Positions 4,007 to 48,604 of a DNA stretch of 64,000 bases are shown here, in pieces. Numbering within the stretch: the first letter of the stretch is position 1; each line of letters starts with the position of its first letter. The position numbers were made by a program, and so were the translations under genes. The DNA lies in contig CACBTL010000002.1 in NCBI GenBank assembly GCA_902542145.1, forward strand, positions 8,170-72,169, given 5' to 3'. The notes beneath the pieces are model-generated. The model had not been told where the DNA came from, did not search any database, and worked only from the letters and a program-made list of their open reading frames with translations. Origin of the DNA: an uncultured SAR86 cluster bacterium. GTDB lineage: Bacteria > Pseudomonadota > Gammaproteobacteria > Magnimaribacterales > AG-339-G14.

Positions 4007-5425
4007 TCAATCCTCATAATTCGTTGGCATTGACATTGCTGGGTCGTTATCTGCTAAGTTTTCAAACTTTATTATATTGGATGCAAAATGAAGTTTCACT
4101 TTTCCAGTTTTCCCATTTCTATGCTTAGCGATATTCACTTCAGCTAAACCTTTGTTTTCTGGAGTCTCATTATAGTATTCATCTCTGTATACAAAGGCTA
4201 CTAAGTCAGCATCTTGTTCTAAAGCACCAGACTCTCTTAAATCTGACATAAGAGGTCTTTTGTTATTTCTATTTTCAACAGCACGGTTAAGTTGTGATAA
4301 TGCGATTACGGTAATATCTAAATCTCTTGCTAAAGATTTTACTGATCTAGATATCTCACTCATCTCAGTAACTCTATTTTCAGAGTTTCTATCAGAATTC
4401 ATAAGCTGAAGATAATCAATAATTATCAGCCCTAGGTCAGGATTTTCTCTTTTGACTTTTCTAGCACGCGAAATCAACTCAGATGGACTAAGGCCAGGCG
4501 TGTCATCTATAAATAATTTTGACTTACTAAGTATGGTTGAAGCATCATCAATATCTCTAAAATCCTCTTCTGAGAGGTTTTTGGCTTCTTGAAGTCTCTT
4601 GAAATCTACCCTAGAAAAAGATGAAAAAAGCCTATACATGATGGATCTTGATGACATTTCCATACTGAAAAGAAGAACAGGAACTTCATCAATAAGTAAA
4701 TTGCAAGCAATGCTCATTGCAAAAGCAGTCTTACCCATCCCCGGTCTGCCAGCAATAATAAATAAATCTCCTTTCTGAAGCCCCATTGTTAGGTTATCGA
4801 TATATTTAAAGCCAGTACTATGACCAACCAGGGGTCCCGATGACTTTAAATTTATATCGATGTTTTCGTAGACTGGACCAACTAGATCTTTAGCTATTTG
4901 CGGTCCGCTTTTTCTTTCAATTGAATCTCTTAATTTTAAAATCTTATCTTCAGCTTTAGTAATTGCATCATCACTGCTGAAACTATCTGTAGTAAACGCA
5001 GTTGATGAAATTTCATCAGCAGTTTCAATAAGTTTTCTTAAACTAGACGTCTGTTTAACTATATCAACATAATTAGAAAAGTTTGAGGTTCCAGGAGTTT
5101 CTTCAAACAAATCTTTGATGTAAGAAGAAAAATTTAAATTTGAATTTTTTTTGATTTCTTCATCTGAAGAAACAGCTTCTATGAGAGTTAGAGTGTCTAA
5201 TTGAGTGCCTTGGTCTGAAAGCTTTTTAATGGCTCTATAAATTATTTTATTTTCTGTTTGAGTAAAATCTTTTTCCTCAATTTGAGTTACAAGATCATCC
5301 CATAAATTAGGCTCCAAAAGGAGACAGCCCAAAGCTGCTTTTTCTGCTTGTATTGATGAAGGTAAGGAATTTTTATCTAAGTTCTTCACGTTTTCTATTC
5401 TCCCATTCGAATAATTAGAAAACAA
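4007..5425 (-). CDS. dnaB: Replicative DNA helicase DnaB
   Basis: It has the Walker A motif GRPGMGKTAF, plus IIIDYLQLM and ALSQLNR. It is 472 aa with no intein. Confidence 0.95.
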   Translation of the reverse strand: MFSNYSNGRIENVKNLDKNSLPSSIQAEKAALGCLLLEPNLWDDLVTQIEEKDFTQTENKIIYRAIKKLSDQGTQLDTLTLIEAVSSDEEIKKNSNLNFSSYIKDLFEETPGTSNFSNYVDIVKQTSSLRKLIETADEISSTAFTTDSFSSDDAITKAEDKILKLRDSIERKSGPQIAKDLVGPVYENIDINLKSSGPLVGHSTGFKYIDNLTMGLQKGDLFIIAGRPGMGKTAFAMSIACNLLIDEVPVLLFSMEMSSRSIMYRLFSSFSRVDFKRLQEAKNLSEEDFRDIDDASTILSKSKLFIDDTPGLSPSELISRARKVKRENPDLGLIIIDYLQLMNSDRNSENRVTEMSEISRSVKSLARDLDITVIALSQLNRAVENRNNKRPLMSDLRESGALEQDADLVAFVYRDEYYNETPENKGLAEVNIAKHRNGKTGKVKLHFASNIIKFENLADNDPAMSMPTNYED

Positions 5426-22496: not shown

Positions 22497-22540
22497 GAGG
22501 TTTAGTCCCAAAATATAAGGGTTTTAAGGATATTTATTAT

Positions 22541-22875
22541 GTGAGCTGACCTATAAGCCGGGTTCTGTAATTGGTAATCATTCCTCTGGGATTTATGTTG
22601 CCATAAACCTCTAGCAACCTACCCTGACCTAATGCGAGAAACATTAACAGGTCTCTATTTGGTCTTGCTCCTGATGGGGTTTGCCAACTACTTTTGTTAC
22701 CAAAAGTCTGGTGCGCTCTTACCGCACCTTTTCACCCTTACCTTTTAACACAAGGCGGTTTATTTTCTGTTGCACTATCCGTTACTTCGCAGCACCCAGA
22801 CGTTATCTGGCATCATTCTCTATGGAGCCCGGACTTTCCTCTATCTATTTGACAGCGATTACCCGGTCAGCTCGA
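22541..22875 (-). ncRNA. rnpB: RNase P RNA, bacterial type A
   Basis: The reverse strand contains GAGGAAAGTCCGGGCTCCATAG, AGTGCAACAGAAA, GGTAAGGGTGAAAAGGTGCGGTAAGAGCGCACC and ACAGAACCCGGCTTATAGGTCAGCTC. P1 pairs GAGCTGACC with GGTCAGCTC. The ends are approximate, within a few nt. Confidence 0.93.
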
Positions 22876-25448: not shown

Positions 25449-26111
25449 TTATTTTAAGTCTTTTTTAAACTCTCTATAAACTAGATAAGCAAAAGCAGTG
25501 AAGATTAAAAGAAAGAGGATAACATATATACCAAGCTGTTTTCTGGTTTCAGCTGATGGATCTGAAACATAAGTAAGAAAATTGGTTATATCAGCAATAT
25601 ATCTATCGTATTCCTCTTCTGATAATTCTGATTGGATATCTTCCAATACATGTGGCATGGAAACATTTACATAAACTTCATTATTAACTCCATAAGGTCT
25701 AGAGGAGTCCTCATAAAAAGTGTCTAAGTAAGTATAAATCCACTCGGGAGATCTCAATCTTGCTTCTAAAGTCAAATCAGGAGGTTTGGCTCCTAATAGC
25801 TCTATAGCCTTGGATTCCTTGAGGCTTATATGCATCAAGTCACCTATTTTAGAGTCATCAAAAATCAAGTTTTGCTCATAAATATCAAGAGGGATTGAGA
25901 GATCTTCAGCGACTCTTTTATAACGTGAATATTTGAGAGAGTGGCATCCATAACAATAGTTCATATATGCTGAAAGACCCCTTTGAAGTGATTCTTTATC
26001 TTTTGTATCAGGGCTGAATTCATAGCATTCAATTGAGCCACATTTGTAATCTCCTGCGGAAATAGATAGCCCTGAAAAAAAAACAAATGCCAAAAAAACT
26101 AATAGCTTCAT
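25449..26111 (-). CDS. petC: Cytochrome c1 (ubiquinol-cytochrome c reductase subunit)
   Basis: It has the signal peptide [19 protein letters not shown], the heme motif CYGCHS and a C-terminal TM anchor. The true start, ATG 26111, overlaps the petB stop as ATGA. The track ORF extends spuriously to 26258. Confidence 0.9.
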
Positions 26112-27361
26112 GCTTCTGCTACTCTCTCCGGAACAGGTTTGCATTTCTCTATCCTTGTATAAATTGGCATCAATAGAAAATAAGAGAAATAACCCAACGT
26201 GAAAATTTTCGATAACAGTGCTTTTGTTTCTGTGGGCGGAACCATACCCAAGTAACAAAGAGCAAAGAAACTTACCACAAAGATTCCTAAGAAAGTCTTA
26301 CTTAATATCCCTTTATATTTGATCGATTTCACAGGGCTTCGATCAAGCCAAGGAAGAACAGCAAAGATAGCAACTGCAGCCATCATAGTAGCAAACCCAA
26401 GGAATTTTGCAGTTAGTCCGAATAAAGGGAAATCCACAGCTCTCAACATGGCATAGAACGGAGTGTAATACCATGAAGGAACAATGTGAGCTGGAGTAGA
26501 AAGGGGATTAGCTGGCTCATAATTGACATATTCGATAATGTACCCACCACCTGTTGGAAAGAAGAAGACCACAGAACAGAATATAATCAGGAATACGCCG
26601 AGTGCAAAAATATCATGACTAATGTCGTAGGGAAAAAATGGTTTTGTGTCTAATGGAACTCCGTCTTCATCAAGATGTTTTTTTACGTCTATTCCATCTG
26701 GATTATTTGAACCAATTTCATGAAGTGCAAGTATATGAAAGAAAACAATTGCAATTAGTAATATTGGAAGAAGGACTACATGAAATGCAAATAACCTTGA
26801 TAGAGTAATTCCTGATACCAAGTAATCACCCCTTATCCATGTTGCCAAATCTTCTCCTACAAGAGGTATTGAACTAAACAACGAAATAATAACTTGAGCA
26901 GCCCAAAACGACATTTGACCCCAAGGAAGAACATAGCCTGTGAAACCTTCAGCCATTAGAATGAGATAGGTAAACCAACCTCCGAGCCATATCAGCTCTC
27001 TAGGTTTTTGATAGGATCCGTACATCATTCCTCTAAACATGTGCAAATAGATAAGTGCAAAAAATGCTGAGGCTCCTGCAGCATGCATGTAACGGATAAG
27101 CCATCCATACTCTACATCTCTCATGATGTATTCAACAGAAGAAAAAGCCTCTTCTGCTGAATTTGTATAATTCATCATCAGCCAAAGACCTGTGACAATT
27201 TGCATTGCCAATACAACAATAAGAAGAAATCCAAAGAGATACCAAATATTGAGGTTAGTGGGTGCTGGATATTTAGATAAATGCCTTTCGAAAACTTCAG
27301 TTAAAGGAAATCTAAAATCTATCCAATTAAGGAAACGTTTCGTTCTAGTATCAGTTGTCAT
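26108..27361 (-). CDS. petB: Cytochrome b
   Basis: It is 417 aa and polytopic, with [15 protein letters not shown] and conserved His ligands. Confidence 0.95.
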
Positions 27362-41380: not shown

Positions 41381-42816
41381 AAGATAATTGGGAAAGTGTC
41401 ATTGGACTGGAAATTCATGTTCAGTTGAATTCAGAATCTAAAATCTTTTCTAATGCTCCAACTAAATTTGGATCTGATCAGAATCTGCAAGCATGCGAAG
41501 TTGATCTTGGCATGCCAGGCACTCTCCCAGTTTTAAATGAAAAAGCCATTGAAAAGGCTTTAAAGTTTGGAGTTGCTATCAATGCAGAGATTGCTGAAAA
41601 AGTAGGCTTTGCTAGAAAAAACTATTTCTATCCTGATTTACCAAAAGGTTATCAAATAAGTCAACTTGATGATCCAATAGTTGGTAAAGGATCAATTGAA
41701 ATTCAACTAGGAGATCAGAAGATCAAAACAATTGGTATCACAAGAGCTCATCTTGAAGAAGATGCTGGCAAGTCGATACATGATCTATTTGAAAATGAGA
41801 CTGCGATTGATCTTAATAGAGCTGGCACACCTTTATTAGAAATTGTCTCTGAGCCAGATATGTCAAATTCTGAAGAAGCGGTTTCTTACTTAAAAAAAAT
41901 TCATTCTATAGTTTGTGCTTTGGAAATTTCTGATGGGAATATGTCTCAGGGTTCTATGAGATGTGATGCAAATGTCTCTGTAAGAAAGAAAGGTGATAAA
42001 AAATTAGGCACAAGAACGGAACTTAAAAATATAAATTCTTTCAAATTTGTCGAAAAAGCAATTAATTTTGAAATAAAACGCCAAATTTCTTGTCTGGAAA
42101 AAGGAGAAGAGATTGTTCAAGAGACTAGGCTGTATGATGCTACAAATAACACTACTAGATCAATGAGATCGAAAGAGGAAGCTAACGACTATAGATATTT
42201 TCCTGAACCAGACATAATCCCTATTCAAATAACATCTGATCAAATTCATAAGATCAAAAATGAATTGCCAGAACTGCCTGATGAAAAAAAAGAAAGGTTT
42301 ATAAATGAATTAGGTCTATCAGAATATGATGCGAGGAATCTTACATATGATCTAGAACTTGCAAATTTCTTTGAAAAAACCTTGGTTAATATCGATGATC
42401 CTAAGCTTGTGGCCAATTGGATATTAGGAGACTTTTCAGCCATTTTAAATAAGTTTGACTCAGAAGCTAACAACTCAAAAGTTGATGCGGTAAAATTCGC
42501 CGAACTACTGACTTATCTCAAAGAAGAAAAAATCTCTGGGCAAGCTACGAAAAAGGTTCTGGAAAATATATGGGAAAATCCAGATTTATCAGTTTCCAAA
42601 AGCATTCAAGACCTTGGTTTAGAGCAAATATCAGACGACAGTGAGATTGAAGAGATAATAGAAAAGGTTATAAATAATAACCCTGATCAAAAGGAACAGT
42701 TTCTTTCTGGGAAAGATCGTTTATTTGGATTTTTTGTAGGCCAGGTAATGAAAGAATCCAAAGGCAAGGCCAATCCTAAGCTCGTAAATGAGATTCTAAA
42801 AAAGAAATTAGTCTAA
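41377..42816 (+). CDS. gatB: Glu/Asp-tRNA amidotransferase subunit B
   Basis: It begins WESVIGLEIHVQL, contains RAHLEEDAGK, and is 479 aa. Confidence 0.96.
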   Translation: MKDNWESVIGLEIHVQLNSESKIFSNAPTKFGSDQNLQACEVDLGMPGTLPVLNEKAIEKALKFGVAINAEIAEKVGFARKNYFYPDLPKGYQISQLDDPIVGKGSIEIQLGDQKIKTIGITRAHLEEDAGKSIHDLFENETAIDLNRAGTPLLEIVSEPDMSNSEEAVSYLKKIHSIVCALEISDGNMSQGSMRCDANVSVRKKGDKKLGTRTELKNINSFKFVEKAINFEIKRQISCLEKGEEIVQETRLYDATNNTTRSMRSKEEANDYRYFPEPDIIPIQITSDQIHKIKNELPELPDEKKERFINELGLSEYDARNLTYDLELANFFEKTLVNIDDPKLVANWILGDFSAILNKFDSEANNSKVDAVKFAELLTYLKEEKISGQATKKVLENIWENPDLSVSKSIQDLGLEQISDDSEIEEIIEKVINNNPDQKEQFLSGKDRLFGFFVGQVMKESKGKANPKLVNEILKKKLV

Positions 42817-43265
42817 GTTACATACATAGTGAGAGCTTCAGCTACGTATGCTGGTTTTTCTTGCCCTTCAATTTCCATTTTTATTTCATTTTTAACTAGA
42901 TACCTTCCATCCCCTTTATCATCTACAGATAATAAAGTAGCTTTTGTTCGAACCTTTGAACCAACATTTACAGGCGTAAGAAATCTAACCTTATCTAAAC
43001 CATAATTAAAAGCCATTTTCATGTTCTCTGGAGCTACTTGAGGAGCAGGCATTCCAGCCATCAATGATAATGAGAGAAAACCATGAGCAATGGTGGAACC
43101 GAATAATGGTGTTGCCTTTTCTTCATCGACATGAATGAATTGATGATCTAACGTTACATCAGCAAATTGATTTATTCTTTCTTGATCAATTTCCAACCAA
43201 TCCGATGTACCCATATCTTTTCCTATGTAATCTTTTAAAGTATCTGCTGGTACTAATCCCGCCAT
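42813..43265 (-). CDS. MaoC-like (R)-specific enoyl-CoA hydratase / hot-dog fold dehydratase
   Basis: It has INQFADVTLDHQFIHVDEEKA...TIAHGFL, the typical MaoC dehydratase motif. It is 150 aa. Confidence 0.8.
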   Translation of the reverse strand: MAGLVPADTLKDYIGKDMGTSDWLEIDQERINQFADVTLDHQFIHVDEEKATPLFGSTIAHGFLSLSLMAGMPAPQVAPENMKMAFNYGLDKVRFLTPVNVGSKVRTKATLLSVDDKGDGRYLVKNEIKMEIEGQEKPAYVAEALTMYVT

Positions 43266-43266
43266 T

Positions 43267-44892
43267 TCAATCTCCTTTTTTAATTAAATGATTTTTATAA
43301 TCTTCTCTTAAACCTGTTTTTAATAATTTTCCGGTTGCTCCGTGAGGTAATTCATCAATGAAGATCACATCATCAGGCAACCACCACTTTGCAACTTTAT
43401 CAGAAAGATACTCTAAAACAGATTCTTTTGTACAGTCGTCAGAATTTTTAACGACAAACAGTAGAGGTCTCTCATCCCATTTTTCATGAGCAACTCCAAC
43501 GACACATGCTTCCAAAACTCCAGGGCATCCGAGGGCGGTATTTTCTAGGTCAATAGAACTTATCCACTCACCTCCAGACTTGATTACATCCTTACTCCTA
43601 TCTACTATCCTCATGTATCCATCTGATGAAATAGTTGATACATCTCCAGTATCAAACCAACCATTTTCTAAAGCACTTTCCGATGACTTGTAATATCTTT
43701 CAATTATTGCTGGTCCTTTAACCATTAACCTGCCAAAAGTTTTCCCATCGTTAGGCAAAGTATCGCCTTCATCATTAACAATTTTAATTTGGCATCCATA
43801 TATTGCTCTTCCTTGACTGGTTTGAAGCTCATAACGATCATCTAACTCCATTAAATCCATCTCTGCTGTATCTTGATTTAATGTTCCCAAAGGACTCATT
43901 TCAGTCATTCCCCACCCATGCAAAAGAAAAACGTTATGTTTTTCTTGGAAGTCTTTTATCATCGACTTAGGAGCGGCAGATCCGCCTACCAATACTGAAT
44001 TTACATTTTCTAGGGTAATGTCCTTTTCATCTAAATAATTAAGTAACCCGAGCCACACTGTGGGAACACCAAGCAAATTATTCACTCCCTCATCGTTAAT
44101 CAAGTTGAAAATAGACTCTCCATCAGTGAAAGGGCCAGGAAATACTAATTTACACCCAAGCATGCTAGCTGCATAAGGAACTCCCCAAGCATTAACGTGA
44201 AACATTGGAACCACTGGGAGGACAACACTTTTTGAAGTTAAATTCATTGCATTTCCTGCGCTCGAATACCATGCATGAAGTATTGTAGATCTATGAGAAT
44301 AGAGAACTCCTTTTGGATTTCCTGTTGTGCCAGACGTATAACACAAAGAAGATGCTGTGTTTTCATCAAAAGTTGGCCAATTAAATTCTTCGCTCTCATC
44401 TTTAATTAACTCTTCGTAACACATCAAATTTTCTAGCTTTGAATCTTTGGGAAGGTTTTCTTTGTCGCATAAAACAATAAAGCCTTTCACGTTTTTTAAA
44501 TTTTTAGCAACTGCCTCAATTATTGGTATAAAAGGAAGATCTATAAAAAGATACTTATCTTCAGCATGATTAACTATGAAATCTATCTGCTCTGGAAAAA
44601 GCCTAGGGTTTAAAGTATGCAATACTGCTCCAATCCCAGAGATTCCAAAATAAAGTTCAAAATGTCGGTAGCCATTGACAGCCATTGTGCCGAGAACATC
44701 GCCTTCTTTAACTCCTAAGTTAACTAAGGCATTGGCAAGCTGCTTTGATCTTTTTGCAGCGTCTAAAATAGAATATCTATGAATGTCTCCTTCAACTCTC
44801 TTGCTTACTATTTCAGTTTTAGAATTATTTTGAATTGCATGCTCAAGAATTCCTGAAATGAGCAAAGGTTCAGTCATCATATTACCCAGCAT
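43267..44892 (-). CDS. AMP-dependent acyl-CoA ligase (medium/long-chain fatty-acid--CoA ligase family)
   Basis: It has the AMP-binding motif [12 protein letters not shown], plus GWGMTE and the C-terminal GKLLK. It is 541 aa. Confidence 0.85.
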
Positions 44893-44914
44893 AATTACCT
44901 CTTTATGATTAATA

Positions 44915-45967
44915 TTAATTAAAAGTCTGACTAACTAATGGAGAATATCTTCGATGTAAGTAAGTTTCAATAGTCTGCTTAGATTTAAAATTTTTTATTA
45001 GCTCTATATCATTTAAGGCTTGCACTAAATAAGGTTTCCATTCCAAAAACAAATTATCGTCTGTAGTCTCAAAAACTACTTTCTTGATATTTTTTGAATT
45101 TCTAATCATTTTGTTGATTTCAGATTTATTGATATTTTTGAAAGGACTATCAAACAAAGGCAGTAGTTCACTGGGTAAATTTATCCTTTTTTTCTTATCA
45201 AAAACTTTACTTATTAAAAATTCATCAGTGTTTATGAGGCCAGTGCCATTTATAACGTGTCCATAAGGATTACCTCTAAAAAAATCCCTGCCCGTAATAT
45301 CGCCTAAAAAAAGCCTTGTAGGACAATAATCGTTTGCATAAAAATTATCCCAAATAATCACAGGATTCTTTATTACTTGACCTAGCTCTCTGAGGTGGTC
45401 TTGAGAAATAAAATCGCTAATTACTTTTGGACCCGTCCAAAGAAAAAATAAATCATTATTTATGGTTTCTGATACTCCTTCGAGATACTTATCATTTTGA
45501 ATTCCTTTTTTAGAAAAGCTTTCGCAATAAATTGATGGACAAAACCATCCGTTACTAAGACCCAACTTAGTAGTTACCTCTGAAATTAATTCGCCGTGAA
45601 ATTTACCTAAATCTTTATCATCAGATTCTATTCCAATGTTATTTATATCAATATCATCAAACAATAAACCTACCTCGGAAAATCCTTTATCAATGGCAAA
45701 ATTAAACTTTGAAAGCAGAAAGTTAAAATCCTTCTTAGATTTTCTATTAAAGTCTGATCCTGGAGATAATGTATATACTTGAGCTATATTTTTGGGAATG
45801 CTTCGTGCTTCCAGAGATTTATCTTTTAATCGCCATTTTTGTCTGATGTAAGAATCTTCTTTTGGTGCATAAATGTAATGGGTAATATTACCATTCTCAA
45901 AACCATAATCATTTTTTTTTGGCTTTCTATTATAAAAACCTTCTATGAATCCTCTGATTTTCATCAT
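44915..45967 (-). CDS. GH84-family beta-N-acetylglucosaminidase (O-GlcNAcase/NagJ-like), catalytic domain only
   Basis: It has IRGFIEGFY, HYIYAPKEDSYIRQKWR, the tandem-Asp motif GLLFDDI, LWTGPKV and PVIIWDNFYANDY, matching GH84 family motifs as I recall them. ATG 45967 overlaps the moeB stop as TAATG. The track starts at GTG 45973. Confidence 0.75.
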   Translation of the reverse strand: MMKIRGFIEGFYNRKPKKNDYGFENGNITHYIYAPKEDSYIRQKWRLKDKSLEARSIPKNIAQVYTLSPGSDFNRKSKKDFNFLLSKFNFAIDKGFSEVGLLFDDIDINNIGIESDDKDLGKFHGELISEVTTKLGLSNGWFCPSIYCESFSKKGIQNDKYLEGVSETINNDLFFLWTGPKVISDFISQDHLRELGQVIKNPVIIWDNFYANDYCPTRLFLGDITGRDFFRGNPYGHVINGTGLINTDEFLISKVFDKKKRINLPSELLPLFDSPFKNINKSEINKMIRNSKNIKKVVFETTDDNLFLEWKPYLVQALNDIELIKNFKSKQTIETYLHRRYSPLVSQTFN

Positions 45968-46737
45968 TAACACTTACCACAAATTTTACATTGGTTATTT
46001 TTTTTAAAAGATATTTCCCTGCTTAAATTATCTTTGAAATCATAATCTTGGAAAATTTGGCAGTTCTTGGATATCTTAGTAATAGTTTTTATTGCTTCTG
46101 AAGCTAACATTGACCCAATTATCCCTACTATTGGAGAAAATATTGCTGATTCTGTGCAGCTTAAGTCTTCAGAAGATGTATCTTCAAATAAGCATTCATA
46201 ACATGCACTATCATTTTGGAAATCAAATTTCATAAGCTGCCCTTTCCACTGAATGCATGAACCTGAAATTAAAGGTATTTTATTTTTATAACAGTAGTTA
46301 TTTGTATACCTTCTGGTTTGAAAATTATCAGAGCAATCTATAATAATTTCGCTCTTTGTTATTTCATCAGGAACACTATTTTTTTCAAAACTTTGTCTGA
46401 ATTTTTTTATATTCACATCAGGATTAAGTCTCAATAAAGATGTAACTGCAGCATCGACTTTAAAAGCATTTAAGTCCTTTTCACGAAATAAAATTTGCCT
46501 TTGTAAGTTGCTTAGATCAACTTGGTCAGGATCAAAGAGGTTTAAGTTACCAATTCCACTTGCAACCAGATACTGCGAGCAGGCGCACCCCAAACCGCCA
46601 ACTCCAATAATCGTGACAGTAGAATTTTTTAGTAGCTTTTGTCCCTCAACCCCTATATCTGTAAGCATGATGTTTCTGCTGTATTTCATCATCTCTTTTT
46701 CACTAAAGTTCACTTGGTTAGGCATGCTACTCTCCAT
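45967..46737 (-). CDS. moeB: MoeB/ThiF-family adenylyltransferase
   Basis: It has the GVGGLGC nucleotide loop, NLQRQ, and two CxxC pairs (CYEC, CKIC). It lies after prmC. Confidence 0.8.
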   Translation of the reverse strand: MESSMPNQVNFSEKEMMKYSRNIMLTDIGVEGQKLLKNSTVTIIGVGGLGCACSQYLVASGIGNLNLFDPDQVDLSNLQRQILFREKDLNAFKVDAAVTSLLRLNPDVNIKKFRQSFEKNSVPDEITKSEIIIDCSDNFQTRRYTNNYCYKNKIPLISGSCIQWKGQLMKFDFQNDSACYECLFEDTSSEDLSCTESAIFSPIVGIIGSMLASEAIKTITKISKNCQIFQDYDFKDNLSREISFKKNNQCKICGKC

Positions 46738-47516
46738 TTTCCATTCAAATCTTTTAAAAAAGAAGCATCGCTATAGTCATTTTGATTTGCCATCTCATTA
46801 ATAAAATCCTTCTGATCAAATCCATGCTCTATAAGCAACTTCCCATTTTCTTTTAAGAAAGTAGCACTATTTTTTATGATTGTACTAATGTCAGCCAGTC
46901 CCTTTTTCTCAGAAAAAAGTGCAGATGGTGGCTCAAACCAAATTCCATCCTCATCTCCATCTAAATCATTACGATTAATATATGGTGGATTAGAAATTAT
47001 CAAATCCATCGGCTCAAAAAGCCATCTTTTACGCCAATCATGCTGAATTAGAACAGAATTTTTCAGATTTAGAGCTTTCATGTTTTCTCTCGCAACAGAT
47101 AAAGCTTCAAAACTTTTATCTGTTAAGGTGCAAGTCCAAAAGGGCTTTTCTTTGGCTATAGACAAACCTATAGCTCCAGATCCTGTTCCAAGCTCAAGAA
47201 GTGAACAATTCTCTAAATCAATAGATATGGCTGTTTCTACTAATAATTCTGACTCTGGTCTTGGGATTAACGTACTTTCATTAACCTGAAATTCATCGTC
47301 CCAAAAAGGTTTTATTCCTGTTATGTATGCTAAAGGAAAACCTTCTTCCCTCCTCTTTACAAGATAGGTAAAAGCTTTATTTGTTGTATCTTGAATTTCA
47401 ATATCTGACTTTTTATAAAGATCAACTCTTTCAATTTTGAGTAAATGACACAAAATTAGTTCCTTATCAATTGTTGGGAGATTTGAAATTGAAAATAACT
47501 TTCGGAGATTCGTCAC
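46710..47516 (-). CDS. prmC: Release factor glutamine N5-methyltransferase
   Basis: It has the LELGTGSGAIG SAM motif and the NPPY catalytic motif. It overlaps prfA by 4 nt. Confidence 0.92.
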   Translation of the reverse strand: MTNLRKLFSISNLPTIDKELILCHLLKIERVDLYKKSDIEIQDTTNKAFTYLVKRREEGFPLAYITGIKPFWDDEFQVNESTLIPRPESELLVETAISIDLENCSLLELGTGSGAIGLSIAKEKPFWTCTLTDKSFEALSVARENMKALNLKNSVLIQHDWRKRWLFEPMDLIISNPPYINRNDLDGDEDGIWFEPPSALFSEKKGLADISTIIKNSATFLKENGKLLIEHGFDQKDFINEMANQNDYSDASFLKDLNGKWRVACLTK

Positions 47517-48604
47517 GAGAGTGTTTTTTCAAGGTTTGATAATAATCTAGCTTGATTTTCTTCTAATAAAGTTGAAATCATGATTTCCATTTCACCATCT
47601 AGGAAACCATCCAAATTATGAACCGAAAATTCAATCCTATGATCAGTGATTCTACTTTGAGGAAAATTATAAGTCCTAATTTTCTCAGATCGATCTCCTG
47701 ACCCAACCATATTTTTTCTTTTTTCAGCTTGCTCCTGAGTTAGTTCTTCTTCTGCCATTGCTTTGAGCTTTGCACCGAGCAAAGTTAGTGCTTTTGCTTT
47801 ATTCTTATGTTGAGACCTATCATCCTGACACTCAACGACTATTCCAGTTGGAATATGAGTTAACCTCACAGCTGAATCTGTCTTATTAACATGCTGCCCT
47901 CCTGCACCAGAGGCACGAAAAGTGTCAGTTCTGATTTCAGACTTATCTATCTCGACTTCTTCAACATCTTCTATTTCTGCAAGAACAGCTACTGAGCATG
48001 CCGAGGTATGAATTCTTCCTTGTGATTCAGTTGAAGGAACTCTTTGAACGCGGTGTATCCCAGATTCAAACTTCAATTTTTTATAAACATTCTCACCAGA
48101 GATTTTAATTACTACTTCTTTAAATCCACCTTGCTCGCTTTCTCTTGACGAAATAAGGTCACTCTTCCATCTATTTCTTTCTGCTAGTCTTAGATACATT
48201 CTATAAAGATCTCCAACAAAAAGTGCTGCCTCATCGCCGCCGGTTCCGGCTCTAACTTCAACAAAAACATTTTTATCATCATTCTCATCAACAGGTATAA
48301 GAAGATTCTTCAGCTCTATTTCAATCTCAGAGATTCTTTCGTTATTTTCCTTAATTTCCTCTTTTGCTAACTCCGCTAAATCCATATCAGATTCATTAAG
48401 GACTTCTTCAGCGCTTGAAATATTGCTTTCGCACTGAATGTACTCATCGAATTTTTCTACAATAGGTTTTAAATTAGAATATTCTTTCGATAAAGATGCA
48501 TACTGCTTTTGATCATTGATTACATCTGGCATGCTCAATTTAGTCTGAATATCAGAGAAATTATCCTTAATCTCAGTTAATCTTGTTTTTATTGAATCTA
48601 ACAT
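47513..48604 (-). CDS. prfA: Peptide chain release factor 1
   Basis: It has the GGQ motif (SGAGGQHVNKTDSAVR) and the PST-type tripeptide (VPSTES). Confidence 0.97.
   Translation of the reverse strand: MLDSIKTRLTEIKDNFSDIQTKLSMPDVINDQKQYASLSKEYSNLKPIVEKFDEYIQCESNISSAEEVLNESDMDLAELAKEEIKENNERISEIEIELKNLLIPVDENDDKNVFVEVRAGTGGDEAALFVGDLYRMYLRLAERNRWKSDLISSRESEQGGFKEVVIKISGENVYKKLKFESGIHRVQRVPSTESQGRIHTSACSVAVLAEIEDVEEVEIDKSEIRTDTFRASGAGGQHVNKTDSAVRLTHIPTGIVVECQDDRSQHKNKAKALTLLGAKLKAMAEEELTQEQAEKRKNMVGSGDRSEKIRTYNFPQSRITDHRIEFSVHNLDGFLDGEMEIMISTLLEENQARLLSNLEKTLS

Follow-up and report, generated by a model that had tools for sequence, protein, structure and literature searches.

A Predicted Cytoplasmic GH84 Glycosidase Held at a Fixed Position in SAR86 Genomes and Its Candidate Substrates

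The GH84 Gene and Its Start Codon

We analyzed a stretch of 64,000 nucleotides (nt), hereafter the window, from an uncultured SAR86 cluster bacterium (GenBank assembly GCA_902542145.1, contig CACBTL010000002.1, positions 8,170–72,169 of the forward strand); all positions below are those of the window. Its minus strand carries at 44915–45967 a gene for a predicted 350-amino-acid (aa) β-N-acetylglucosaminidase of glycoside hydrolase family 84 (GH84), similar to the O-GlcNAcases (OGA; GlcNAc, N-acetylglucosamine), as judged from the list of open reading frames (ORFs), its match to the Pfam profile PF07555, matches in the PDB, and a comparison of start codons. According to the ORF coordinates, the gene occupies the fourth position of a tightly packed same-strand string, prfA-prmC-moeB-GH84-acs-maoC; an original prediction made from the DNA letters alone had proposed it as the fourth gene of a prfA-prmC-moeB operon.

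The six-frame ORF list places the stop codon of the gene (TAA) at 44917–44915 and its first ATG at 45967; if translation began instead at a GTG at 45973, the protein would have 352 aa. The GH84 motifs quoted in the original prediction all lie within the 350-aa ORF: EGFY (residues 9–12), YIYAPKED (31–38), WR (45–46), LLFDDI (101–106, including D104-D105), WTGPKV (177–182), and IWDNFYANDY (205–214). No record matched the window protein in an exact-sequence lookup.

The junction with the upstream gene (TAATGATG; 45962–45969, minus strand) comprises the stop codon of the moeB-like gene and two candidate GH84 starts, and reads GGT AAG TGT TAA TG ATG AAA on the minus strand. The TAATG overlap claimed earlier is present, the moeB-like stop (TAA, 45969–45967) sharing one base with the ATG at 45967–45965. 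A second ATG, at 45964–45962, lies 3 nt downstream of the overlapping one and is invariant in a comparison with 13 close relatives, whereas three relatives (L013, L014, and L015) have ACG or TTA in place of the overlapping ATG; relatives used for comparison share 94–47% identity with the window protein. The working start is therefore probably the second ATG, at 45964, which would lie 2 nt past the moeB stop and still leave the stop–start coupling tight. Inspection of the junction revealed no recognizable Shine–Dalgarno sequence upstream of the GH84 start.

Family Membership and Active Site

Assignment to GH84 was borne out by profile searches: PF07555 is the only Pfam match of the protein (E-value 1.2e-36; 127.1 bits, for a gathering score of 25) and is covered over positions 1–230 of its 295. 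The NCBIfam GlcNAcase profile NF041654 is matched with a domain-level E-value of 1e-21, far under its equivalog cut-off, which was built on enzymes of 732 aa. Sequence matches in the PDB include human OGA (hOGA; E-value 8e-30), the Oceanicola granulosus enzyme OgOGA (6e-25), BtGH84 (9e-21), TtOGA from Thermobaculum terrenum (1.5e-20), and NagJ from Clostridium perfringens (1e-15). Neither Pfam nor NCBIfam returned a GH3 match, so the protein is not a member of the NagZ family and can be at most its functional analog.

Residue-by-residue alignment equates Asp104-Asp105 (codons GATGAT, 45653–45658, minus strand) with D174-D175 of hOGA, which agrees with the tandem catalytic pair named in the original prediction. 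The pair is kept in all 92 sequences aligned (55/55 from SAR86, 26/26 from Fibrobacterota, and 11/11 outgroups). The residues that bind the GlcNAc moiety are likewise in place: K36, Y147, W206, N208, D213, and Y214 align with hOGA K98, Y219, W278, N280, D285, and Y286, and the family alignment pairs N240 with N313. These seven positions and the two aspartates are invariant in the 55 SAR86 and 26 Fibrobacterota sequences. Several of them fall within the segment W206-D207-N208...N212-D213-Y214-C215-P216 (45320–45352, minus strand), which alignments show to combine sugar-binding residues with a signature, YANDYCP, characteristic of a subfamily. Its C215-P216 dipeptide is 100% conserved in SAR86 and Fibrobacterota and corresponds to D-Q in hOGA; together with H124 and E309-W310, it forms a set of invariant residues on the aglycone side that are the subfamily's own.

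The alignments show that the protein possesses every component of an active GH84 enzyme, from which catalysis is predicted. By analogy with the family, the protein would be a retaining exo-β-N-acetylglucosaminidase operating by substrate-assisted catalysis, in which Asp104 would polarize the 2-acetamido group of the substrate to yield an oxazoline intermediate and Asp105 would act as the general acid/base.

Predicted Structure and Cellular Location

From an alignment of 32 sequences, AlphaFold2 gave a model of high confidence (pLDDT, the per-residue score, 89.2; pTM, the predicted template-modeling score, 0.87). GH84 structures account for all of the 50 top matches that Foldseek returned from the PDB, the best being OgOGA and human OGA (E-value ~1e-21; template-modeling score 0.75 over the full length). 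The model and the alignment place the catalytic (β/α)8-barrel at residues 1–243 (45239–45967, minus strand). Its strands at residues 5–8, 30–33, and 62–67 follow one another without helices between β1, β2, and β3, and deletions relative to relatives of 370–400 aa (window clade and sister clade; residues ~9–62; 45780–45967, minus strand) match the absent helices α1 and α2. On this model, the window sub-clade has trimmed two outer helices of the barrel and is an unusually minimal GH84, the barrel itself being still confidently predicted. At 350 aa, it provides a natural minimal scaffold for structure–function work on OGA.

Residues 244–350 (44918–45238, minus strand), which include the invariant E309-W310, form a C-terminal bundle, or "stalk," of seven helices in the model, and Foldseek aligns the whole protein to OgOGA and to the catalytic and stalk regions of hOGA. 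The description of the product as devoid of accessory domains thus needs qualifying, as residues ~244–350 are the helical stalk typical of OGA-type GH84s; because the model consists of barrel plus stalk, the protein is not a bare catalytic domain.

The absence of a signal peptide, also claimed previously, agrees with the model, in which strand β1 begins at residue 5 and therefore leaves no space for one, and with the lack of a hydrophobic N-terminal segment in any of 81 homologs. The relatives all begin within ~25 residues of their GYIEGYYG motif. A cytoplasmic location is accordingly predicted from the model and from the homologous N termini, rather than from a dedicated signal-peptide predictor.

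Conservation and Selection in SAR86

When one genome of each GTDB species was scanned, 217 loci encoding relatives of the window protein were identified. The best matches come from single-cell genomes of the SAR86 cluster, with 92–98% identity, which places the window in SAR86 (order Magnimaribacterales). Each of the ~55 loci retrieved from SAR86 species representatives has the gene intact, full length, and in the same slot; the cultured isolate HIMB1674 carries it (locus L037). Because these loci were recovered through their GH84 similarity, they document the spread and fixed position of the gene, not that no SAR86 genome lacks it. The SAR86 genomes concerned are streamlined, with sizes of 1.2–1.7 Mb; the retention of the gene in a streamlined genome, which had been singled out as unexpected, thus extends beyond the window, with vertical inheritance and purifying selection.

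In a neighbor-joining tree, all SAR86 sequences group into one clade, sister to a Fibrobacterota/Chitinivibrionales clade, and the 350-aa forms make up a long derived branch. Pairwise ratios of nonsynonymous to synonymous substitution rates (dN/dS) for GH84 are 0.11–0.13 in three separate SAR86 clades; those of prmC, moeB, and ispE are 0.12–0.16, 0.10, and 0.15–0.19, respectively. Identity between SAR86 clades is only 31–48% for GH84 versus 62–89% for prfA, acs, and maoC. The two genes that always follow GH84, at a distance of 2–22 nt, are among the most constrained of the block (dN/dS 0.03 for acs and 0.02 for maoC; 63–89% identity across the order). Altogether, these data strongly support the view that GH84 is an ancient gene, native to SAR86 and vertically transmitted, which diverges fast although it is under steady purifying selection. 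We rejected a recent horizontal transfer, as the GC content of the gene (0.299 overall, 0.234 at third codon positions) equals that of neighboring genes such as ispE and the SAR86 sequences are monophyletic. One sequence with 53% identity (P0006) was set aside as a likely assembly chimera, its N terminus being of the 384-aa type and its C terminus identical to that of the window clade.

The Gene String and Its Geometry

The string extends from the start of prfA (48604) to the end of maoC (42813), and its six same-strand genes overlap or are separated by gaps of at most 22 nt. The first gene, prfA (47513–48604, minus strand; NF001859 and TIGR00019, E-value ~1e-152), encodes release factor 1. 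It is followed by prmC, for the release-factor glutamine methyltransferase (46710–47516, minus strand; TIGR03534, E-value 6e-74, above cut-off), and by a gene for an adenylyltransferase of the ThiF/MoeB family (45967–46737, minus strand; PF00899, E-value 2e-72). For the latter, moeB is a loose label, and the MoeB assignment is at best marginally supported by profile scores: the NCBIfam model PRK05690 is matched with 266.1 bits for a cut-off of 266, that is, 0.1 bit over it, and the TIGR02355 equivalog falls below its cut-off. Downstream of GH84 lie acs, encoding an AMP-forming acyl-CoA synthetase (43267–44892, minus strand; PF00501 and PF13193), which begins 22 nt after the GH84 stop and has its own Shine–Dalgarno sequence (AGAGG, 44897–44901) 5 nt ahead of its ATG, and the last gene of the string, maoC, encoding a MaoC-like (R)-hydratase (42813–43265, minus strand; PF01575).

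In the window, prfA and prmC overlap by 4 nt, prmC and moeB also overlap, the moeB/GH84 spacing is −1 or +2 nt depending on the start, and gaps of 22 and 1 nt separate GH84 from acs and acs from maoC. In nearly all of the ~55 SAR86 loci, GH84 is similarly packed, with −7 to +20 nt upstream and 2–22 nt downstream. A consensus scan detected no terminator-like site on the minus strand at the junctions and gaps of the string, and the corresponding scan for promoters was uninformative (20 promoter-like sites versus 25.9 expected in shuffled sequence). On geometry alone, co-transcription from prfA to maoC is likely, though promoters may also lie inside coding sequence. Because the GH84 start overlaps the upstream stop or lies 2 nt after it and has no Shine–Dalgarno sequence of its own, GH84 would be made at a low level by termination–reinitiation after moeB or prmC.

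The partners named in the original prediction did not all prove to be conserved: prfA-prmC is, but moeB is missing from many SAR86 clades. As seen in the window and in loci L034–L060, the moeB-like gene is present in the window clade, in a sister clade with 45–48% identity, and in L043 and L045, and is absent from the large clade of HIMB1674 and from several others. In the HIMB1674 clade, where moeB is absent, the GH84 ATG overlaps the prmC stop as ATGTTGA. An apparent moeB deletion with a truncated GH84 (252 aa, P0004) in a Tara scaffold (L002) was discarded as an artefact of a run of 100 N (4488–4587). In Pseudomonas, the slot after prfA-prmC-moeB would hold murI, as the original prediction has it; the literature on the prfA-hemK-moeB-murI arrangement gave nothing usable.

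The proposed wiring of the gene to translation termination likewise stands only in part. Its adjacency to prfA-prmC is real, but the link is positional, as a whole block of ~17 kb is collinear across SAR86: ychF-pth-rplY-prs-ispE-lolB-like / prfA-prmC-(moeB)-GH84-acs-maoC / gatBA / mreBC. In this block, the genes from the lolB-like one to ychF (lolB-like-ispE-prs-rplY-pth-ychF) diverge from the string on one side, whereas gatBA converges with it on the other side and is followed by mreBC. Given this collinearity of the entire block and the continuation of the string into acs and maoC, adjacency to prfA and prmC conveys little functional information.

Homologs Outside SAR86

The wider GH84 family comprises 4,753 representative clusters, of which 1,632 match with E-values of at most 1e-30. 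Within it, the SAR86 protein forms a YANDYCP subfamily with Fibrobacterota and other homologs, and this signature occurs in at least 41 of the 146 top representatives at 50% identity. Two gene contexts were observed in Fibrobacterota. In ~14 loci of Fibrobacteria (L056, L059, L061–L066, L070, L074, L080, L081, L085, and L087), the order is NUDIX-FolB-SDR-GH84-RidA-UbiD-UDG-GGR, GH84 sometimes overlapping the SDR stop; in the second context, it is flavodiiron-unknown-GH84-SprT-HisRS. In two loci with this second context, of Chitinivibrionales type (L033 and L083, 2346–5690), a NamZ-MurU-AmgK cluster for salvage of N-acetylmuramic acid (MurNAc) lies 2.3 kb upstream of the homolog on the opposite strand. 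No glycosyltransferase was found among the Fibrobacterota GH84 neighbors examined, namely a 316-aa gene, response regulators, an HTH gene, SprT, and SDR. The homologs in Fibrobacterota and elsewhere never adjoin prfA or prmC; since, moreover, streamlined genomes pack unrelated genes together, the release-factor adjacency in SAR86 should not be over-read.

Among distant loci of OgOGA type, L089 (1152–3166) has a GH84 gene followed, with a 4-nt overlap, by a gene for a GNAT acetyltransferase, which amounts to the catalytic and histone acetyltransferase-like (HAT) parts of human OGA split in two. Genes for a DegT aminotransferase and a PTS_EIIC permease were seen nearby in L089 and L088 (3746–8359).

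Comparison with Known GH84 Enzymes and NagZ

Within GH84, the SAR86 protein is a member of the intracellular OGA-like group, represented by OgOGA and TtOGA, and not of the secreted multidomain enzymes. Like OgOGA (PDB 2XSA, 2XSB, and 7KHS), its top Foldseek match, it consists of barrel plus stalk and has no signal peptide, and the two agree in their catalytic and sugar-binding residues; OgOGA is moreover an intracellular orphan with no known natural substrate (PMC2973230), as is the SAR86 enzyme. However, OgOGA has 447 aa, ~100 more, lacks none of the barrel helices, has a larger stalk, is only ~20% identical in the Foldseek alignment, and has a hOGA-like D-x-x-R loop where the SAR86 protein has its C-P signature. 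Its relative in L089 is accompanied by a GNAT (pseudo-HAT-like) gene, whereas SAR86 GH84 is not.

Human OGA (MGEA5; PDB 5UHK, 5M7R, and 5UN9) is the best sequence match, extending over residues 6–228, with identical counterparts of the aspartate pair and of K98, Y219, W278, N280, D285, Y286, and N313, a shared LFLGP..GR motif, and a substrate-assisted retaining mechanism that is presumed to be the same. Unlike the SAR86 protein, it is 916 aa long, contains disordered regions as well as a pseudo-HAT domain, and is paired with the O-GlcNAc transferase OGT on nucleocytoplasmic proteins; several of its groove residues for protein substrates differ in SAR86. TtOGA (PDB 5DIY), which is also bacterial and intracellular, has a helical bundle and is matched in both sequence and fold, but it is longer, with 474 aa; it co-occurs with a GT41 OGT homolog (PMC4683255). 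The secreted or multidomain enzymes BtGH84 (BT_4395) and NagJ belong to the same family and have the same catalytic residues, but they are 590–740+ aa long and act extracellularly on host glycans, with signal peptides and N-terminal, CBM, cohesin, or FN3 modules, none of which occurs in the SAR86 protein. The likeness to NagZ is one of functional analogy only, both being cytoplasmic exo-β-GlcNAcases (by prediction in our case), as NagZ has a GH3 fold and uses an enzyme nucleophile without substrate assistance.

The family, its mechanism, and the existence of intracellular orphan GH84s in bacteria (OgOGA and TtOGA; PMC2973230, PMC4683255) were already known, and GH84 had been noted in passing in a SAR86 metagenome-assembled genome (MAG). 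What is new here is a positionally fixed GH84 under purifying selection in every SAR86 locus retrieved, the finding that moeB is not a conserved partner, the trimmed 350-aa form, and the coincidence of this gene with the presence of AmpG and the absence of NagZ.

Possible Physiological Roles

We hold the identity of the enzyme, its cytoplasmic location, and its conservation, as described above, with high confidence. Intracellular bacterial GH84s resemble the O-GlcNAcase of animals and hydrolyze O-GlcNAc peptides in vitro, and what they act on naturally has long been an orphan question. SAR86 is a hugely abundant, streamlined marine order of the surface ocean with a cultured member, HIMB1674; because each gene retained in such a genome likely matters, and because this isolate is available, the question becomes experimentally approachable.

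The role that we favor, tentatively and at somewhat less than even chances, is in cell-wall recycling: in the cytoplasm, GH84 would remove the terminal GlcNAc from turnover products imported by AmpG, that is, GlcNAc-anhMurNAc-peptides (anhMurNAc, the anhydro form of MurNAc). Elsewhere, this job falls to the unrelated GH3 enzyme NagZ, which is absent from most SAR86 genera. Indeed, ampG was reported in 21 of 22 SAR86 genera and in HIMB1674, and nagZ in 5 of 22 and not in HIMB1674 (Ramfelt et al. 2024, PMC11582366, Suppl. Table 5); these counts apply to published genera, among which the window clade is not placed, and the supplements contain no KEGG rows for GH84, OGA, or OGT, no moeB rows, and no names of single-amplified genomes (PMC11582366). 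AmpG import without NagZ calls for another cytoplasmic GlcNAcase, for which GH84 would be the obvious candidate. Degradation and use of peptidoglycan by SAR86 has been proposed (Dupont et al. 2012, PMC3358033), and a SAR86 MAG study filed GH84 together with GH103 under "peptidoglycan recycling," without a test. If GH84 does substitute for NagZ, it would represent a new physiological role for the family and fill a gap in the cell-wall recycling of SAR86. We also count in favor of this role the two Fibrobacterota loci in which NamZ-MurU-AmgK lies 2.3 kb from the homolog.

A number of observations weigh on the other side. We know of no GH84 enzyme that cleaves GlcNAc-β-1,4-(anh)MurNAc. The substrates of characterized GH84s are O-GlcNAc peptides and aryl glycosides (PMC2973230, PMC4683255), and the proteins nearest to the SAR86 one in sequence and structure are not enzymes of the cell wall but protein O-GlcNAcases, either true or candidate. 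GH84 probably occurs throughout SAR86, alongside NagZ in some genera, so that there is no simple either/or replacement of one by the other, and the GH3 "bglX" genes found in all SAR86 genera might cover the role of NagZ (PMC11582366). Gene neighborhoods are of little help to the proposal: those of GH84 in SAR86 and Fibrobacterota are housekeeping strings without sugar-handling genes, and NamZ-MurU-AmgK is absent from L073 and L082 despite the same immediate context and long flanks. The absence of a NagZ motif from 1.34 Mb of sequence, all of it GH84 neighborhoods, says little. Taken as a whole, that is, a minimal cytoplasmic GH84 placed in this string, expressed by reinitiation, and acting on muropeptides, the explanation seems to us a reasonable candidate whose chances nevertheless fall short of even.

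A doubtful but not negligible alternative is that the cytoplasmic glycosidase serves another GlcNAc-capped small molecule, such as chitobiose or chito-oligosaccharides, a GlcNAc-glycolipid, or a GlcNAc-conjugated metabolite, for example a pterin β-GlcNAc glycoside. GH84 pockets accept many aglycones (aryl, peptide), and the invariant aglycone-side residues that the subfamily has for its own (C215-P216, H124, and E309-W310) suggest a dedicated, different aglycone. Distant OgOGA-type relatives adjoin PTS_EIIC sugar permeases and DegT aminotransferases, and SAR86 GH84 precedes acs and maoC, which are of lipid type. On the other hand, genes for nutrient acquisition usually have a patchy distribution among SAR86 genera, whereas GH84 occupies a fixed core slot, and no GlcNAc transporter, kinase, or deacetylase is located nearby in SAR86. 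Pterin β-GlcNAc glycosides are known, of the limipterin and tepidopterin type. A substrate of this sort might be suggested by the homologs that directly follow the pterin/folate-type NUDIX-FolB-SDR genes in the ~14 Fibrobacteria loci, and by the position of SAR86 GH84 after a MoeB-family gene; however, the FolB and moeB adjacencies belong to collinear housekeeping strings and may be historical, and the loss of moeB has had no effect on GH84. We therefore regard the pterin conjugate as a low-probability lead only.

It is unlikely, in our view, that the enzyme is an eraser of protein O-GlcNAc, removing the sugar from cytoplasmic proteins modified by an OGT-like (GT41) partner whose gene would lie at another place in the SAR86 genome. 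The proteins that the enzyme matches best in sequence and fold (human OGA, OgOGA, and TtOGA rather than the secreted GH84s of gut bacteria and pathogens) argue for such a role, as do the shared barrel and stalk, the latter being implicated in peptide recognition (PMC2973230; PMC4683255), and the cytoplasmic, housekeeping-like character of a gene present in every SAR86 locus retrieved. The groove itself gives a mixed picture: hOGA residues I176, T217, and F223 have identical or similar counterparts (I106, S145, and F151), but S190 and E218 are changed to K122 and I146, and D287-Q288-K289 to C215-P216-T217. Furthermore, no GT41/TPR glycosyltransferase was encountered among the 26 window proteins scanned or beside any homolog, the rest of the genome not having been searched, and nothing usable on GT41 in SAR86 turned up in the literature. 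Across CAZy, a single bacterium has both an intracellular GT41 and a GH84, and no O-GlcNAc proteins were detected in it (PMC4683255); OgOGA cleaves O-GlcNAc peptides in vitro, but there is no evidence that this is its natural job. A genuine cytoplasmic cycle of protein O-GlcNAc (or an O-GlcNAc-like modification) in SAR86, with a 350-aa OGA as its core-gene eraser in a release-factor operon, strikes us as quite unlikely. Were it true, this signaling would extend to a major bacterial lineage, and among bacterial lineages that are widespread and ecologically dominant, SAR86 would be the first with reversible O-GlcNAc signaling; its OGA would be the smallest natural one.

A functional tie to translation termination, with GH84 acting for instance on a GlcNAc-modified release factor, PrmC, or ribosomal component, is very improbable: adjacency to prfA-prmC has been kept across the deepest splits of SAR86, with an overlapping stop and start whether moeB is there or not, but in a region of ~17 kb that is collinear throughout it is no better conserved than the adjacency of unrelated neighbors, and it is never seen in Fibrobacterota or elsewhere. 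In other gammaproteobacteria, moreover, the slot would be taken by genes unrelated to GH84, such as murI in Pseudomonas. Finally, the trimmed barrel of the window clade and the low inter-clade identity might evoke a decaying relic without current function, kept by chance, but this is effectively refuted by selection and conservation, that is, the low dN/dS in three independent clades, the invariance of the catalytic residues in 81 sequences, the intact full-length gene in every SAR86 locus of these small genomes, and the confident fold model.

Other Features of the Window

The window has a GC content of ~34% and is packed with core genes, including those for cytochrome bc1, rpsI/rplM, hisDG, a murA-type enzyme, mlaC, kdsD-lptCB, mgtE, mreBCD, gatCAB, prs, pth, ychF, truB, and the bacterial RNase P RNA (22538–22874, minus strand; 322 bits). 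Four tRNA genes were identified (49936, 53394, 61402, and 61532): one for Gln-TTG, which lies between ispE and prs, two for Met-CAT, and one for Leu-GAG.

Upstream of the string, the start of prfA (minus strand, 48604) is separated by only 18 nt from the divergent start of a 171-aa gene at the lolB position (plus strand, 48623), so that both promoters must lie inside the coding sequence of the neighbor. The 171-aa product has no Pfam match and a lipoprotein-like N terminus (…LSSC). The gene hemA, which precedes prfA in Escherichia coli and Pseudomonas, is absent from this position in the window. At the other end, the stops of the convergent maoC (minus strand) and gatB (plus strand) overlap by 4 nt (42813–42816), and a terminator-like hairpin of the plus strand is located inside the maoC coding sequence (42838–42854).

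At 25449–27361 (minus strand), the genes for the Rieske protein, cytochrome b, and cytochrome c1 are arranged as the usual bc1 operon, with a GST-like gene at the sspA position as a neighbor. The cytochrome c1 ORF as listed (TTG start, 26258) shares 150 nt with the end of cytochrome b, and the real c1 start is probably further downstream.

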